Assembly: GCA_937925635.1 (NCBI GenBank)
Contig: CALALX010000003.1
Location: forward strand, 6,598 to 70,597
Length of the DNA: 64,000 nucleotides
Direction of reading: 5' to 3'
Source: an uncultured Caulobacter sp.
Lineage (GTDB): Bacteria; Pseudomonadota; Alphaproteobacteria; Caulobacterales; Caulobacteraceae
This document shows, one piece after another, positions 34,776-41,921 of this stretch (position 1 is the stretch's first letter; the number at the start of each line of letters is the position of its first letter). A program made the position numbers and the translations under genes. Under the pieces are notes generated by a model, which did no database searches, was not told the DNA's origin, and saw only the letters and a list, made by a program, of their open reading frames with translations.

Positions 34776-35219
34776 TTAACCGCAGCAGGCGGCGCGAGGG
34801 GCTTCGGCCTGACCGGCCGCCGCGAGCAGGGCGGCGGGCTCGCCTTCGCCGTAGGTCGTGGCCTCGCCGGTGGTGTGGAAGGTCTCCCAGCGCACGCCCG
34901 AGGGGTCGACGACCCAGCTCTTGTCCGACTTGGCGTAACAGCAGGTGGTCGCCTCCTGATCGAAGGTCGTCTCGCCGGCGGCCTTCAGGCGCGTGGCGAT
35001 CTCGGCGAGTTCCGGGCCGGTGTCGGCCTGGACACCGACGTGGTCGATGCCGGCCGCCCGCCCGCGCCGCGAGATGGCGAGGTTCACGCGCGGGTCCTCG
35101 AGCATCCACTTGGCGTAGTCGTCCTTCACCACGCTCGGCTCGGCGCCGAACAGGGTGGAGTAGAAGCCGATCGAACGGTCGAGGTCCTCGACGGCGATAT
35201 GCAGGTGCAGGCGCTTCAT
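34776..35219 (-). CDS. arsI: ArsI/CadI family VOC metalloenzyme (C-As lyase-like)
   Basis: HLHIAV, HVG, TTCCYAKSDK.WV.DP and WETF; ATG 35219 with GGAG RBS. Confidence 0.85.
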   Translation of the reverse strand: MKRLHLHIAVEDLDRSIGFYSTLFGAEPSVVKDDYAKWMLEDPRVNLAISRRGRAAGIDHVGVQADTGPELAEIATRLKAAGETTFDQEATTCCYAKSDKSWVVDPSGVRWETFHTTGEATTYGEGEPAALLAAAGQAEAPRAACCG

Positions 35220-35240
35220 GGCGGTCTCCAAAAATCGATA

Positions 35241-35258
35241 ATTCGAGAAATAAGGAAA
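35241..35258. promoter_or_regulatory. Putative ArsR operator upstream of arsI
   Basis: attcgagaaataaggaaa, similar to the 34737 box and overlapping a TTGACG-type promoter on the minus strand. Confidence 0.5.
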
Positions 35259-35294
35259 TATATGCGGCCGTCAAGGGCCGGCTTGACGGCGCCC

Positions 35295-35315
35295 CTTGAT
35301 TGATCATTCAATCAA
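35295..35315. promoter_or_regulatory. Palindromic operator TTGATTGA-N4-TCAATCAA
   Basis: Perfect 8-bp arms at 35296-35303 and 35308-35315; shares CTTGATTGA-N4-TCAA with 59264 and 59294. Confidence 0.7.
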
Positions 35316-35335: not shown

Positions 35336-35896
35336 ATGGCCAGCCTCGACGACGCGACGCGCACCATGATCCGCAATCTCGAGGAGAAGACAGGGCGCAA
35401 TCTGGGCGACTGGGCGGACCTCGCGAACACCTCGGGACACGAGAAGCACGGTCAGATCGTCGCCTGGCTGAAGAGCGAGCACGGCCTGGGCCACGGCTAC
35501 GCCAATCTGGTCGCGCTGGAGTCTCGCGGCGGCCTGACCCGCGAGGCTTCGGAAGAAGACGCCGTCGCGGCCGTCTTCGCTGGCGAAAAGGCGGCGCTGC
35601 GACCGCTCTACGACGTGATCGAGGCCTGGGTGAAGGGCCTGGGCGGTGATGTCGAGATCGCGCCGAAGAAGGCCAACGTCTCGGTGCGGCGCTCCAAGCA
35701 GTTCGCGCTGATCCAGCCCTCCAGGAAGACCCGCATGGACCTGGGCCTCCAACTCAAGGGCGTCACGCCGTCCGGCCGGCTGGAAGCCTCCGGCTCCTGG
35801 AACGCCATGGTCAGCCATCGCGTCCGGCTCGAGGACGCGGCGGCCTTCGACAGCGAGGTGAGAGGCTGGCTGAAGGCGGCCTACGACGCGGCCTGA
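35336..35896 (+). CDS. DUF4287-DUF5655 fusion protein
   Basis: NLEEKTG...W...KHGQIVAWLKSEHGLGHGYAN (DUF4287) and PKKANVS.RR.KQFA...SHRVRL...EV..WLKAAYD (DUF5655). Confidence 0.85.
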   Translation: MASLDDATRTMIRNLEEKTGRNLGDWADLANTSGHEKHGQIVAWLKSEHGLGHGYANLVALESRGGLTREASEEDAVAAVFAGEKAALRPLYDVIEAWVKGLGGDVEIAPKKANVSVRRSKQFALIQPSRKTRMDLGLQLKGVTPSGRLEASGSWNAMVSHRVRLEDAAAFDSEVRGWLKAAYDAA

Positions 35897-35899
35897 TTG

Positions 35900-38299
35900 T
35901 CAGGGCAGGGCGATCGCTCCGAACACGGCTCCCGAGTCGGATACGTCGAAGGGCATGACGTTGGCCGGACGCGGCGGCAGCGGCTTCGCCCCCGCCGGCC
36001 AACCCTCCGACACGACGGCCCAGTCGACCTTCGCCGGTCCGCGGCCGACCGCAAGCACCAGCTTGATCGGGCCGGGGTCGGATTGCCACCGCAGGCGCGT
36101 CCGCGATCGTCCCGAGGGTGTCGCGTCCTGGTTCTCCGGGTCATCCCGTGAGACGGCGACCGGCCGACCGTTGACGGCGGCGGCCATGACCGGATCGCTC
36201 TCGACCTCGATCATGACCAGCCGTCCGTCGGCCACGCCCTCGACGACGATCTCGCCTGCTGGCGTTCGAGACACCGACAGGCCCGTCGTCGGCGCGCCGG
36301 CGCCGGCGGGAGCCCGCCAGGCCTTGCCCCGCGCGAAGGGCGGGAACGCCGCCTGCTCGACCTTGCCGCCGTCGGCCGTGATCGCCGCGCGAGACCAGTC
36401 GTCGAGGTCGGGCGTCGTCGAGACGCGCCACGCCTTGCCGGTCGCGGCTTCGGTGACATGGAAGACGCTGGTCGCCATCGGATGTCGCTCGGTCCAGGGA
36501 TCCCGGAAGCGCACGGCGCCGACCAGCGCCGCGCCGATGGCGAGCACCACCAGGGCCGGGACCAGAGCTCCGCGACCGTCGCGGGCCGCCAGCGGCCAGG
36601 CCGCGATCGAGGCGAGAAAGACCAGGAGTCCGAGGATCGCCGGCAGGTCCAGACCCTGGGCGACCCCGTGAAAGTAGACGGCTAGCCAGCCGCCCGCCAG
36701 GATCGCGAGGAGGGCAAGGGCGGCCAGACGCAGGCGATCGAGACGCGTGCCGAAGTCGGTCGCCAGCGCCGCCAGCGCGGCCAGGGCCAGCGGCCAGGCG
36801 ACGATCACGGCCACGGTGGGCTGGGCGATCTGCAGGCCCAGCGCCAGCACGAAGCCCACGGCCAGCACGCCCGGCCAGGCGTGCTCGATCTTCTCCGGTT
36901 TGCCGAAGACCGCCGCCGCCAGCCCCGCCGAGGCCATGGCGAGAACGCCCCCGACGAGATCCCAACCGCCGAGCAGTTGGCAGAACACGCCCCCGAGCAG
37001 GGCCGAGACGACGGGAGGCCAGCGCCGCTCGCCGCGTCCGAGCATGGCCGGGATCAGAAGCAGCATGCCGATCGCGATGATCGCCAGGGTCGTCTCCCAT
37101 AGCGCCCATTGGGCCAGCAACGGCCGCTGGCCCATGAAGCCGAAGTCGACGCCGGTGGCGCGACGCGCCAGGTGCAGGGCCAGGGCCGTTCCCGTGAGGA
37201 CCAGCACCGCCGCGCCCGCGCCGCGCAGCACGCCGCGCCAGTCGCCGCGGCCAAGGCCGCCGCGCCGCGCCGCCCAGGCCAGGGCGCCGGCGATGGCTGC
37301 GATCAGGATCCAGCCGCCCCACGCCGGATAGGCCAGCACATGGTCGCCGAAGGTCTGGCTGTAGACCGCGTCCGGGGCCTTGCCGGGCAGGGACTTGGCG
37401 AAGGCGAAACCAGACGCGGCGGCGAGGGTCTGGTCGCCGATATGCTGCACGGAGCCCTTGTCGAGGTTGGCCACGGTGGCGGTGGCGGCATGATAGTCGA
37501 ACTGCCGGCCGATGAAGGCGAAGTTCAGCCCGGGGACGCCCGCTTCCTTGGAGATGGAGAAGTCAGTGTCGTTGGGCATGTTCTCATAAAGGAAGACGGC
37601 CAGCGAGTTGCTCACCGGCGCGCTGGCGGTCCTGGCGAAGGCGGTGACGACGGCGCCATTGTCCGGACCGGTCTGGAACATGTTGGCCCGGCCGCCGTTG
37701 CCGCGGGCCTCGAGATTGATCAGCAGGCCGATCCGCTCGCGAAGCGGATGCTCTGAAAAGAAGGCGCGGGCGCCGAGCAGGCCCGCCTCCTCGCCGTCGG
37801 TGATCAGCACGATGACGTCGCGCTCGGGCGTTCCCCGGGCCTTGAGGGCGCGGATGGTTTCCAGGATGGCGGCGACGCCGGTCGCGTCGTCGGCGGCCCC
37901 GGGCGAGCCGGGCACGCTGTCGTAGTGCGCCATCAGCGCCAGAGCGGGCAGGGTGCGGTCCCGGCCCGGCAGGACCCCGACGATGTTCTCGACGGCGCCG
38001 CCGACGATCCACAGGTCCTCGCCCCAGGCCCGCCGCTCGACCGCCTGCCCGGACTGCACCGTCGGCGAAAGGCCGAGCGAGGTCATCCGCGCCCTGACAT
38101 AGTCACGGACGCGATCGTGGTCGGCCGACCCGAGCGGATGGGGGCGTTGGGCGATCGTCTCGATGTCGACGAGGGCTCGCCCAGCCGAGAAGCCCGCCGC
38201 CGGCGCATTGACGGCCCGCGGGACGGGCGTCCGTGTTCCCAGCCAAGCCAGCACCAGGGCGCCGACCAGTGTCACCGCGAGCGCGATGGTCCGCATCAT
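35900..38299 (-). CDS. Membrane-embedded M28 family metallopeptidase (ERMP1/Pff1-like architecture)
   Basis: AHYDS, GAADD, DGEEAGLLG, NLEARG and YH, followed by about nine TM helices; ATG 38299. Confidence 0.88.
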   Translation of the reverse strand: MMRTIALAVTLVGALVLAWLGTRTPVPRAVNAPAAGFSAGRALVDIETIAQRPHPLGSADHDRVRDYVRARMTSLGLSPTVQSGQAVERRAWGEDLWIVGGAVENIVGVLPGRDRTLPALALMAHYDSVPGSPGAADDATGVAAILETIRALKARGTPERDVIVLITDGEEAGLLGARAFFSEHPLRERIGLLINLEARGNGGRANMFQTGPDNGAVVTAFARTASAPVSNSLAVFLYENMPNDTDFSISKEAGVPGLNFAFIGRQFDYHAATATVANLDKGSVQHIGDQTLAAASGFAFAKSLPGKAPDAVYSQTFGDHVLAYPAWGGWILIAAIAGALAWAARRGGLGRGDWRGVLRGAGAAVLVLTGTALALHLARRATGVDFGFMGQRPLLAQWALWETTLAIIAIGMLLLIPAMLGRGERRWPPVVSALLGGVFCQLLGGWDLVGGVLAMASAGLAAAVFGKPEKIEHAWPGVLAVGFVLALGLQIAQPTVAVIVAWPLALAALAALATDFGTRLDRLRLAALALLAILAGGWLAVYFHGVAQGLDLPAILGLLVFLASIAAWPLAARDGRGALVPALVVLAIGAALVGAVRFRDPWTERHPMATSVFHVTEAATGKAWRVSTTPDLDDWSRAAITADGGKVEQAAFPPFARGKAWRAPAGAGAPTTGLSVSRTPAGEIVVEGVADGRLVMIEVESDPVMAAAVNGRPVAVSRDDPENQDATPSGRSRTRLRWQSDPGPIKLVLAVGRGPAKVDWAVVSEGWPAGAKPLPPRPANVMPFDVSDSGAVFGAIALP

Positions 38300-39653: not shown

Positions 39654-40349
39654 TCAGGCGGCGCTGACGCCTTCCTGCGGGTCGCGCAGCACATAGCCGC
39701 GGCCCCAGACCGTCTCGATGTAGTGGTTGCCGCCCGACGCCGTCGCCAGCTTCTTGCGCAGCTTGCAGATGAACACGTCGATGATCTTCAGCTCGGGCTC
39801 GTCCATGCCGCCGTACAGGTGGTTCAGGAACATTTCCTTGGTCAGGGTCGTGCCCTTCCGGAGCGAGAGGAGTTCCAGCATCTGGTACTCCTTGCCGGTC
39901 AGGTGGACCCGCATGCCGTTCACCTCGACGGTCTTGGCGTCGAGGTTCACGCCGATCTCGCCGGTCTGGATCACCGCCTGGGCGTGGCCCTTCGAGCGGC
40001 GCACCACGGCGTGGATGCGGGCGACCATCTCGTCCTTGTGGAACGGCTTGGTCATGTAGTCGTCGGCGCCGCCGCCCAGGGTTTTCACCTTGGTGTCGAT
40101 CTCCGACGAGCCGGACAGGATCATGATCGGGGTGTTGATCTTGCCGTTCCGCAGCGTGCGCAGAACGTCCATGCCGCTCATGTCGGGCAGGTTCAGGTCC
40201 AGCAGGATCAGGTCGTAGTCGTAGATCTTGCCCAGATCCACGCCCTCTTCGCCCAGGTCCGTCGTGTAGACGTTGAAGCCCTCGGACTTCAGCATCAACT
40301 CGATGGTCTGAGCCGTGGCGCTGTCATCCTCAATCAACAGTACGCGCAT
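39654..40349 (-). CDS. ctrA: Cell-cycle master regulator CtrA
   Basis: [28 protein letters not shown]...[16 protein letters not shown]; 231 aa from ATG 40349. Confidence 0.98.
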
Positions 40350-40391
40350 CGATCCCCTCCCCGCGGCCCTCCCGCGGCAACAGATGTGTGA

Positions 40392-40591
40392 AGGCGGAAT
40401 CCGCCTCCGGCGCTCACCGGCCACACTGCCGACGGGCTGCTTTAAGACTGGTTAATGGTGAACGACCCTCTGGAAAGAATCGTTAAGGCGATTTGCGAAT
40501 CGCGGGCAAGCGGCAAGTTCGGGCCATGGAGTCACAGGCCGGATGACTCTTTCGTGATCGCCGAATCCCCAGTGAATCCCGAGGGATTCAC
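40392..40591 (-). promoter_or_regulatory. ctrA promoter region: TTAA-N6-TTAA site and eight GANTC (CcrM) sites
   Basis: TTAA at 40442-45, 40452-55 and 40483-86; GANTC at 40397, 40477, 40497, 40529, 40545, 40563, 40574 and 40585. Confidence 0.8.
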
Positions 40592-40745
40592 AAACCCTTT
40601 GAGGCGTTGGAGTAGCCGTGGGCACGCCAGCCGCCGGGACGCCGCGAGGCAGCGTTCGACAACCGCCGTTCGACCGAAATTTTCAGGGTTCTGGAAGACA
40701 TCGCCCACCGCGACGGATTGCCTCGGACCGTCCCGCGGTAAACGA

Positions 40746-41921
40746 TCAGTCGGCTCGGACCGCCGTCTCGATGAAACCGCCGCCGAGGACGCGGCTCGGC
40801 GCTTCCGGCGCATAGAGGACGCAGGCCTGGCCCGGGGCGACGCCTTCTTCCGGCGTGTCGAGGGCGACGGCGATCCGCCCGTCGACGGTGGTCAGGCGGC
40901 CGGGGACCGGTTCGCGGGTCGAGCGGACGCGGGCCAGCACGGCGCGACCGCTGGCGGCCGCTTCGCCGATCGTCGCCTCGTCGCCCAGCCAGTTGTCTTC
41001 CTTCAGCGTCAGGGCGCGGGTCAGCAGCGCCTCGCGCGGGCCGACGATCACCTGGCGGGCGTCGGCGTCGATGCGGGTCACGAACAGCGGATCGCCGGTG
41101 CCGCCGCCGACGTTCAGGCCCTTGCGCTGGCCGATGGTGTAGCGGGTCACGCCCTCGTGCCGGCCCAGCACCCGGCCGTCCAGGTGCACGATGTCGCCAG
41201 GCTCGGCGCCGTGCGGGCGCAGGCGGTCGATCACCGTGTGGTACTTGCCCTCGGGCACGAAGCAAATGTCCTGGCTGTCCGGCTTGTCGGCCACCGACAG
41301 GCCGATGTCGGACGCCACGCCGCGCACCGCCGGCTTGGGCAGTCCGCCGAGCGGAAAGCGCAGGTAGTCGAGCTGTTCGCGCGTGGTGGCGAACAGGAAG
41401 TAGCTCTGGTCCCGATTGGCGTCGGCGGCGCGATGCAGCTGCGGGCCGCTCGCCGTGTCCTCGCGGCGCACATAGTGGCCGGTCGCCATGGCCGCGGCGC
41501 CCAGGTCGCGGGCGACATCCAGCAGGTCGCGGAACTTCACCGTCTGATTGCAGCGCACGCAGGGGATCGGCGTCTCGCCACGCAGGTAGGCGTCGGCGAA
41601 GTCCTCGATGACCTGCTGCTTGAAGCGACTTTCGTAGTCGAGGACGTAGTGCGGGATGCCGATGGCCTCGGCCGCCTGGCGGGCGTCGAGGATGTCCTGC
41701 CCCGCGCAGCAGGCGCCCTTCTTCTGGATCGCCGCCCCGTGGTCGTAGAGCTGCAGCGTCACGCCCACCACGTCATAGCCGGCCTTGGCCAGCAGCGCGG
41801 CGGTGACGGTCGAGTCCACACCGCCCGACATGGCCGCGACCACCCTCGTCCCCGTCGGAAGACCGACGGCGGCTCGCACGACGTCGTCGGCGATGTCCAG
41901 GGTGGAGGGCAGGGCGTTCAT
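40746..41921 (-). CDS. mnmA: tRNA 2-thiouridine(34) synthase
   Basis: [37 protein letters not shown] and PGQACV. Confidence 0.97.

Follow-up and report, generated by a model that had tools for sequence, protein, structure and literature searches.

The closest described system is the ctrA promoter region of Caulobacter crescentus, with its P1, P3, and P2 promoters. P1 carries a GANTC site at −29/−28 and a TTAA half-site for CtrA at −14, a full CtrA box lies at −39 relative to P2, which is −14 relative to P3, and a SciP half-site is present at −78 of P1 (PMC4287350). P1 has one GAnTC, and a second one is found past the P2 start (PMC3667746). GcrA, which travels with the sigma70 holoenzyme, stimulates promoters with a high-ranked YGAKTCK near −20 or at +2 to +30, and almost no GcrA-linked sites fall in the zone near −10 in C. 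crescentus (PMC4647560). The GcrA/CcrM-dependent promoters of mipZ, podJ, cckA, and CCNA_00697 have juxtaposed GANTC sites, two or three of them near the start site, and mutation of GANTC cripples mipZ, podJ, flaY, and pleC reporters by 60-80% (PMC3667746, PMC4647560). GcrA of B. subvibrioides shows no extended-motif preference (PMC7987155).

The weight of CcrM methylation in ctrA timing is still a matter of debate, C. crescentus included. There, a strain in which the promoter of the sole ctrA copy cannot be methylated looks normal (PMC3973325), and hemimethylation as a trigger has itself been questioned (PMC4647560). Ardissone et al. 2016 (PMC5172544) describe hypomethylated GANTC loci in C. 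crescentus that are shielded by MucR or CtrA. Finally, Tomasch et al. 2021 (PMC8116508) report one to five or six GANTC sites in the 300 bp upstream of ctrA in Sphingomonadales and Caulobacterales. Already published are this type of promoter and its P1 site, as well as autoregulation by CtrA and the abundance of GANTC upstream of ctrA in general. What is new at the locus presented here is a site count beyond the published range with the top rank in its own genome, a stepwise gain of sites within one genus, a conserved 27-bp module with three sites, and statistical evidence that the motif letters are under selection.

The locus lies in a 64,000-nucleotide stretch of contig CALALX010000003.1 (assembly GCA_937925635.1), referred to here as the window and used for all coordinates given without a contig. 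Its source is a Caulobacter species of activated-sludge-type habitats. The only carriers of the cluster sequence found are metagenome contigs, and the sequence is identical in three metagenomes.

Position and density of the GANTC cluster

The ctrA gene (39654-40349, minus strand, ATG at 40349) encodes a protein of 231 amino acids that scores 411 bits with the NCBIfam CtrA equivalog NF045991, against a cut-off of 350, and is 85-95% identical to CtrA in named Caulobacter, Phenylobacterium, and Brevundimonas genomes. The equivalog match supports the placement of the cluster upstream of ctrA proposed in the earlier note. The upstream neighbor is mnmA, which encodes a tRNA 2-thiouridine synthase (40746-41921, minus strand; NCBIfam NF001138, 422 bits), and the cluster lies inside the 396-bp spacer between the two genes (40350-40745), 52-240 nt before the ctrA ATG. 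An intrinsic-terminator scan of 40300-40800 gave no terminator-like site between mnmA and ctrA, and Rfam has no match in 40250-40850 at E≤1. A sigma-70 consensus scan of 40300-40800 gave no promoter match with the E. coli consensus, which Caulobacter promoters do not follow, so that this negative carries little information. Upstream of the cluster, at 40653-40674, the spacer also contains an exact direct repeat, CGTTCGAC-N6-CGTTCGAC, which is not kept in relatives. The alphaproteobacterial SOS box is GTTC-N7-GTTC, and the GTTC-N10-GTTC spacing of this repeat does not match it.

A pattern search places GANTC at 40397, 40477, 40497, 40529, 40545, 40563, 40574, and 40585, which amounts to eight sites in 193 bp and reproduces every coordinate of the earlier note. 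That note had expected about 0.5 sites in such a length, and recomputation gives about 0.3-0.56. Its four inverted repeats and its TTAA-N6-TTAA motif (40442-40455) are likewise present as described.

The genome as a whole (3.76 Mb) contains 5704 GANTC sites, or 1.52 per kb versus 2.88 per kb expected from base composition, consistent with the two-fold depletion of GANTC in CcrM-bearing Alphaproteobacteria (PMC3973325). Against this background the cluster is the top 200-bp segment genome-wide, with eight sites where the runner-up has six. Dinucleotide shuffles of the 200-bp cluster (59% GC) give a mean of 1.3 sites and a maximum of six, so that 0 of 5000 reach eight; shuffles of the whole 396-bp intergenic region give a mean of 2.1, and 3 of 5000 reach eight. 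For non-coding-like DNA, with 1.99 sites per kb, at least eight sites in 200 bp have a Poisson probability of about 1e-8. The intergenic region has 62% GC versus 69% for the genome.

Other GANTC-rich places in the genome are of several kinds. A repeated element of about 116 bp, with at least 22 copies at 88-100% identity, four GANTC per copy, and internal inverted symmetry, looks MITE- or REP-like from its sequence. Its copies (C129:44906-45030, C51:13720-13838, C72:8888-9005, C103:62851-62966, and others), none of them in the window, account for most other genome segments with 4-5 GANTC per 200 bp. The second-densest unique cluster, six sites in 132 bp at C121:35318-35449, contains TTAAC motifs and is flanked by a PAS_5-domain gene at 34818-35312 and a Ros/MucR gene at 35524-35961, both on the minus strand. 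Four sites in 38 bp lie directly upstream of ccrM beside TTAA motifs (C84:32415-32452, equivalent to L082:2266-2303); a ccrM gene carrying its own target sites is described for C. crescentus. Finally, a crude coding mask flagged a stretch of about 34 kb with low third-position GC and 68 GANTC sites (C27:6328-40200), which may be a horizontally acquired island.

The cell-cycle proteins expected for such a system are encoded in this genome. The ccrM gene product (C84:31314-32393, minus strand, 359 aa) matches PDB 6PBD, the structure of C. crescentus CcrM, with an E value of 2.9e-210 over residues 1-357. The NCBIfam CcrM equivalog is its best match at 633 bits, yet this score is under the strict cut-off of 830. 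GcrA is encoded as well (NCBIfam equivalog, 297 bits vs a cut-off of 280), as is a Ros/MucR protein (PF05443, 177 bits). The earlier note had made its proposal depend on a ccrM gene in the genome, and the 6PBD match supplies an orthologue, accompanied by gcrA.

Anatomy of the ctrA promoter and leader

The comparison covered 103 ctrA loci, from 80 named genomes and 23 members of the same genus, giving a genus set of 24 with the window included. In ctrA sense, the aligned core reads cTTGcccgc-GATTC-gcaaatcgcc-TTAAC-GATTC ... ca-TTAACCAGTCTTAA-a ... GGCGG-ATT-CCGCC ... GGAGG-ATG, and 74 bp of promoter core are kept in 23 of the 24 genus genomes. Read through this alignment, the cluster region is the ctrA promoter and leader, colinear with the P1/P3/P2 layout of C. 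crescentus. By homology, we infer transcription starts near 40472 for P1, near 40441 for P3, and near 40416 for P2.

The predicted P1 core (40497-40509, minus strand) combines a GANTC site at −29 (40497-40501, in the 7-mer CGATTCG) with a −35-like TTGCCC (40504-40509). The arrangement cTTGc..GATTCGCAAATC is found in 23 of the 24 genus members, as is the P1 GANTC itself. Within cTTGcccgcGATTCgcaaatcgccTTAAC, the distance from the G of GATTC to the first T of TTAAC is exactly 15 nt, the spacing that the published −29 and −14 positions imply. This TTAAC, a putative CtrA half-site at −14 of predicted P1 (40482-40486), is fused to a further GANTC site at −9 to −5 (40477-40481, in the 7-mer CGATTCT; the pair spans 40477-40486, minus strand). 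The fused form, TTAACGATTC, is kept by the window's clade as well as by Phenylobacterium-like relatives, while C. crescentus-like species have TTAACCATT, without GANTC. Farther downstream lies a putative CtrA box, TTAACCAGTCTTAA (40442-40455, minus strand), which can be read as TTAA-N6-TTAA or, with an N7 spacer, as TTAA-N7-TAAA. This motif corresponds by homology to the box that activates P2 and represses P3, and it is nearly invariant in 24 of 24 genus members and in most Caulobacteraceae loci. A 417-nt metatranscriptome contig (X23) from a 96%-identical relative, which could contain DNA, runs from inside ctrA to 40460 and so ends 12 nt inside the predicted P1 start, to which it lends weak support. 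Among public metatranscriptome contigs of relatives, none reaches further upstream than 40460.

Two hairpins are predicted in the leader. The 5'-UTR hairpin AGGCGG-AUU-CCGCCU (40392-40406, minus strand) holds in its loop the 40397-40401 GANTC, 52 nt before the ATG and at about +17 of the predicted P2 start. RNAalifold recovers this GGCGG-loop-CCGCC hairpin across the 24 genus members, and the loop is GANTC in only 9 of 24; the site at 40397 may therefore be an incidental by-product of the hairpin. The second hairpin, CCGCGG-GAGGG-CCGCGG (40361-40377, minus strand), comes from a single-sequence RNA fold and lies directly upstream of the Shine-Dalgarno sequence GGAGGGG (40354-40360). RNAalifold makes no call for this stem in the 24 genus members, and it folds in the window only; compared by eye, relatives have GCCGCC/GGCGG, GCCACC/GUGGCG, and CGCCAG/UUGGCG at this place, with differing sequence and complementary arms. 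Either hairpin could bear on the translational control of ctrA.

For the four inverted repeats in which six of the sites are embedded, the earlier note had considered cruciform formation. Their sequences stand, and their standing differs from one to the next. The repeat at 40392-40406 is the genus-wide 5'-UTR hairpin, and GAGTCA-N9-TGACTC (40529-40549) folds no better than shuffles (45/200) and is not kept as a palindrome in sister species; its symmetry arises largely because GANTC is self-complementary. GCGATT-TGCG-AATCGC (40488-40503) is the P1 spacer, with GATTCGCAAATC all but universal in the genus, in which the outer pair is G..C in the window versus C..G in three relatives (L088-L090), still complementary. 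The 20-bp perfect palindrome (40572-40591) does fold better than shuffles as single-stranded DNA (z = −4.65), with arms of 9 bp in the window, of which only 7 bp are conserved in three sister species. Hairpin energies of the inverted repeats as single-stranded DNA are −4 to −6.8 kcal/mol. With arms this short, cruciform extrusion is unlikely, and these energies together with the unconserved outer arm bases of the 20-bp palindrome speak against the cruciform idea.

Upstream sites and their gain within the genus

Beyond the P1 core, five more sites extend upstream, at about −59, −75, −93, −104, and −115 of predicted P1. The site at −59 (40529-40533, 184 nt before the ATG) occupies the same aligned position in the window, in five relatives (L087-L091), and in most Phenylobacterium-like loci. 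Its central base varies between GACTC and GAGTC across species, with G, A, T, and C fixed. The site at −75 (40545-40549, 200 nt before the ATG) lies in the block ATCACGAAAGAGTCA (40544-40558, minus strand), which follows the pattern ATCAC(G/A)AAAGA(G/T)TCA in 12 of 14 Caulobacteraceae loci and is single-copy in the genome at up to two mismatches. The position of this site, and its position only, matches that of the C. crescentus SciP half-site. The three remaining sites form a 27-bp distal module, GAATCCC-TC-GGGATTC-ACTG-GGGATTC in ctrA sense (40563-40589, minus strand), in which they are spaced 11 bp apart. Its core is a 16-bp palindrome, extended to the 20-bp palindrome in the window.

The distribution of these sites traces a gradient. 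In its general form, GAATCCC-NC-GGGATTC-ACTG-GGGATTC, the distal triple is found only in the window and in three sisters (L087, L088, L089, which are 95%, 81%, and 78% identical to the window over the spacer), with diverging flanks, and it is missing from the 20 other genus members. Two other relatives, L090 and L091, have a five-site core at −200, −184, −152, −132, and −52 from the ATG that is common to Phenylobacterium-like genomes. C. crescentus-like genus members have one to four sites, and two of them (L098, L104) have the published two-site layout. Site counts thus climb stepwise within the genus. Counted in the 300 bp upstream of ctrA, the 103 loci have a median of four GANTC sites in Caulobacteraceae-like genomes and two elsewhere, and the only loci with at least eight are the window (8) and its three sisters (9, 9, 10). 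Multi-site ctrA promoters are therefore widespread among the sampled loci and not limited to this genome. The description of the region as expanded holds against both the two sites of C. crescentus and the published maximum of five or six.

The pattern of substitution points to the motif itself. Over the distal region of four species, all 20 of the 20 specified letters of the five sites are invariant versus 38 of 71 other columns (Fisher p=2.8e-5), and for the five core sites in five species 20 of 20 GANTC letters are invariant versus 89 of 190 other columns (p=8e-7). Invariant GANTC letters around a variable central base are as predicted for selection on the methylation motif. The earlier note had suggested aligning ctrA upstream regions as a check on conservation, and the sites are indeed kept in relatives. 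In the high-count subclade, the GANTC letters are under clear purifying selection. A strain variant (X4) differs at 40505, 40528, 40534, and 40538, with 0 of 4 changes within GANTC, too few for significance alone.

Two further ideas about the cluster were examined and rejected. A repeat or mobile element is not indicated, as the distal piece, the 20-bp palindrome, GGGATTC-N4-GGGATTC, and ATCACGAAAGAGTCA are each without a second copy in the genome. A motif shared with the ccrM promoter, GGATTCAC, is present in both regions but occurs 54 times genome-wide and is uninformative. At the promoter positions where the window's clade has GANTC, five C. crescentus-like relatives (L094, L095, L100, L101, L105) carry TCCACA DnaA-box-like and tandem GCGAC (SciP-type) motifs, as defined in PMC4287350. 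This suggests that regulator sites are swapped at equal ctrA promoter positions between relatives.

Proposed function, rival readings, and known systems

Taken together, the sequence comparisons make the region quite probably an expanded variant of the CcrM/GcrA/CtrA-controlled ctrA promoter, in which the upstream sites would most likely raise the occupancy of a methyl-GANTC reader. Passage of the replication fork would leave the GANTC sites hemimethylated until CcrM returns late in S phase. At P1, the methylated CGATTCG at −29 would stimulate RNA polymerase-sigma70 that carries GcrA, with a probable extra contribution in this clade from the second YGAKTCK-type site, CGATTCT at −9 to −5. Rising CtrA~P would then turn P1 off via the TTAAC half-site at −14 and P2 on via the TTAACCAGTCTTAA box. 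The five upstream sites are stepwise additions within the genus, kept as GANTC. Most likely they cause more of a methyl-GANTC reader to be bound locally, and GcrA is the leading candidate for this reader. Higher reader occupancy would in turn render ctrA transcription more methylation-dependent. Since all eight sites lie within 193 bp, the fork would hemimethylate them essentially together; the extra sites could therefore make the response stronger or sharper but would leave the time of hemimethylation as it is.

The individual steps of this model differ in how far they can be carried. The interpretation in the earlier note is supported in part, and its cooperativity and slow remethylation draw no support from the sequences compared here. 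The P1 site alone is the one that we commit to working as in the model organism. Only CGATTCG (40497) and CGATTCT (40477) fit YGAKTCK, and the other six sites misfit in either orientation. CGATTCT itself sits near the −10 zone, which counts against GcrA action there. The five upstream sites, which are off YGAKTCK, low-ranked for C. crescentus GcrA, and remote from its zones near −20 and at +2 to +30, may not be read by GcrA at all, although the lack of an extended preference in B. subvibrioides GcrA means that the misfit may not exclude it. Furthermore, the normal-looking strain with an unmethylatable promoter and the questioned hemimethylation trigger imply that the physiological weight of the sites may be small. 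A bolder form of the model is quite unlikely: the 27-bp module, with three GANTC on one helix face, and the −59 and −75 sites would make up a cooperative platform for a methyl-GANTC reader, which could be a GcrA oligomer or a protein that has yet to be described. Such a platform would turn the weak P1 methylation dependence of C. crescentus into a strong, switch-like one, and would constitute a natural gain-of-function experiment on the epigenetic control of a cell-cycle master regulator.

The misfit of the upstream sites to YGAKTCK (0 of 5) and their location at −59 to −115, outside the GcrA zones, also give room to a different reading, in which they are a docking platform for a protein other than GcrA: SciP, MucR, CtrA-associated factors, or an unknown dimeric or tandem binder of GAATCCC-N2-GGGATTC-N4-GGGATTC. 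Adenine methylation would modulate this binding, or the bound protein would keep CcrM off the sites, so that a patch of local hypomethylation remains. The inverted pair followed by a 7-bp direct repeat at an 11-bp period has, in our reading, the geometry that dimeric or OmpR-type binders typically use, the CCC/GGG bases beside the sites are kept along with the GANTC letters, and the −75 site occupies the SciP half-site position. In C. crescentus, GANTC can be made inaccessible to CcrM by MucR and CtrA (PMC5172544), and mucR is present here. This reading is nonetheless fairly unlikely. With a single copy each of the module and of the ATCACGAAAGAGTCA block in the genome, a regulon signature is missing; the variable central base of the −59 site between fixed G, A, T, and C favors selection on a methylation motif over a protein-contact sequence; and GcrA of B. 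subvibrioides, which has no extended preference (PMC7987155), weakens the argument from the misfit.

A structural role, in which the region would form cruciforms or sequester hemimethylated DNA in a SeqA-like manner during replication or segregation rather than act in transcription, is very improbable. It could draw on the 20-bp palindrome that outfolds its shuffles and on the 11-bp phasing of three sites, but the hairpins reach just −4 to −6.8 kcal/mol, the 9-bp arms shrink to 7 bp in the three sisters, and, of the other palindromes, one is a transcribed UTR hairpin and another is no better than chance. A SeqA-like reader of GANTC was not found described in the literature searched. That the cluster is a compositional by-product, with unselected sites in a lower-GC intergenic region, has virtually no chance of being correct. 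The lower GC raises the expectation to about two sites, but the cluster ranks first among all 200-bp genome segments, none of its 5000 shuffles reaches eight, the Poisson probability is about 1e-8, and ctrA upstream regions are GANTC-rich across Alphaproteobacteria (PMC8116508 and the 103-locus sample). The conservation of position across species with invariant GANTC letters effectively refutes chance. The expanded CcrM/GcrA/CtrA-controlled promoter remains the preferred reading. Since this promoter is orthologous to a well-known one, it refines known biology and overturns nothing. Its value lies in the genus as a whole, where ctrA promoters with one to ten sites form a graded natural series that could show whether site number and position tune methylation dependence.

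A comparison with the described systems delimits what is shared and what is added. Like the MucR- and CtrA-shielded loci of Ardissone et al. (PMC5172544), this promoter has a group of GANTC sites overlapping sites of cell-cycle regulators in a genome with mucR, a likeness that here is one of sequence; a term search of that paper gave no passage on ctrA. As in the juxtaposed-GANTC promoters of mipZ, podJ, and others, several close sites lie in a cell-cycle promoter; unlike in those promoters, five of them are 59-115 nt upstream and off the GcrA consensus. The survey of Tomasch et al. (PMC8116508) and the 103-locus sample give the same picture of ctrA upstream regions, with the difference that the window's eight sites and its sisters' 9, 9, and 10 exceed the published maximum.

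The closest likeness is to the C. crescentus ctrA region itself. The gene is the same, and so is the order of elements: a −35 TTG, GATTC with TTAAC at a distance of 15 nt, the TTAACCAGTCTTAA box, a hairpin in the leader that carries GANTC, and the Shine-Dalgarno sequence. The P1 site CGATTCG fits YGAKTCK, and ccrM, gcrA, and mucR are all present. In contrast, the window has eight sites where C. crescentus has two. Of the additional sites, one near −10 of P1 is fused directly to the half-site for CtrA, two lie at about −59 and −75, and the 27-bp triple-site module at −93 to −115 has no counterpart in the C. crescentus-like members of the genus.
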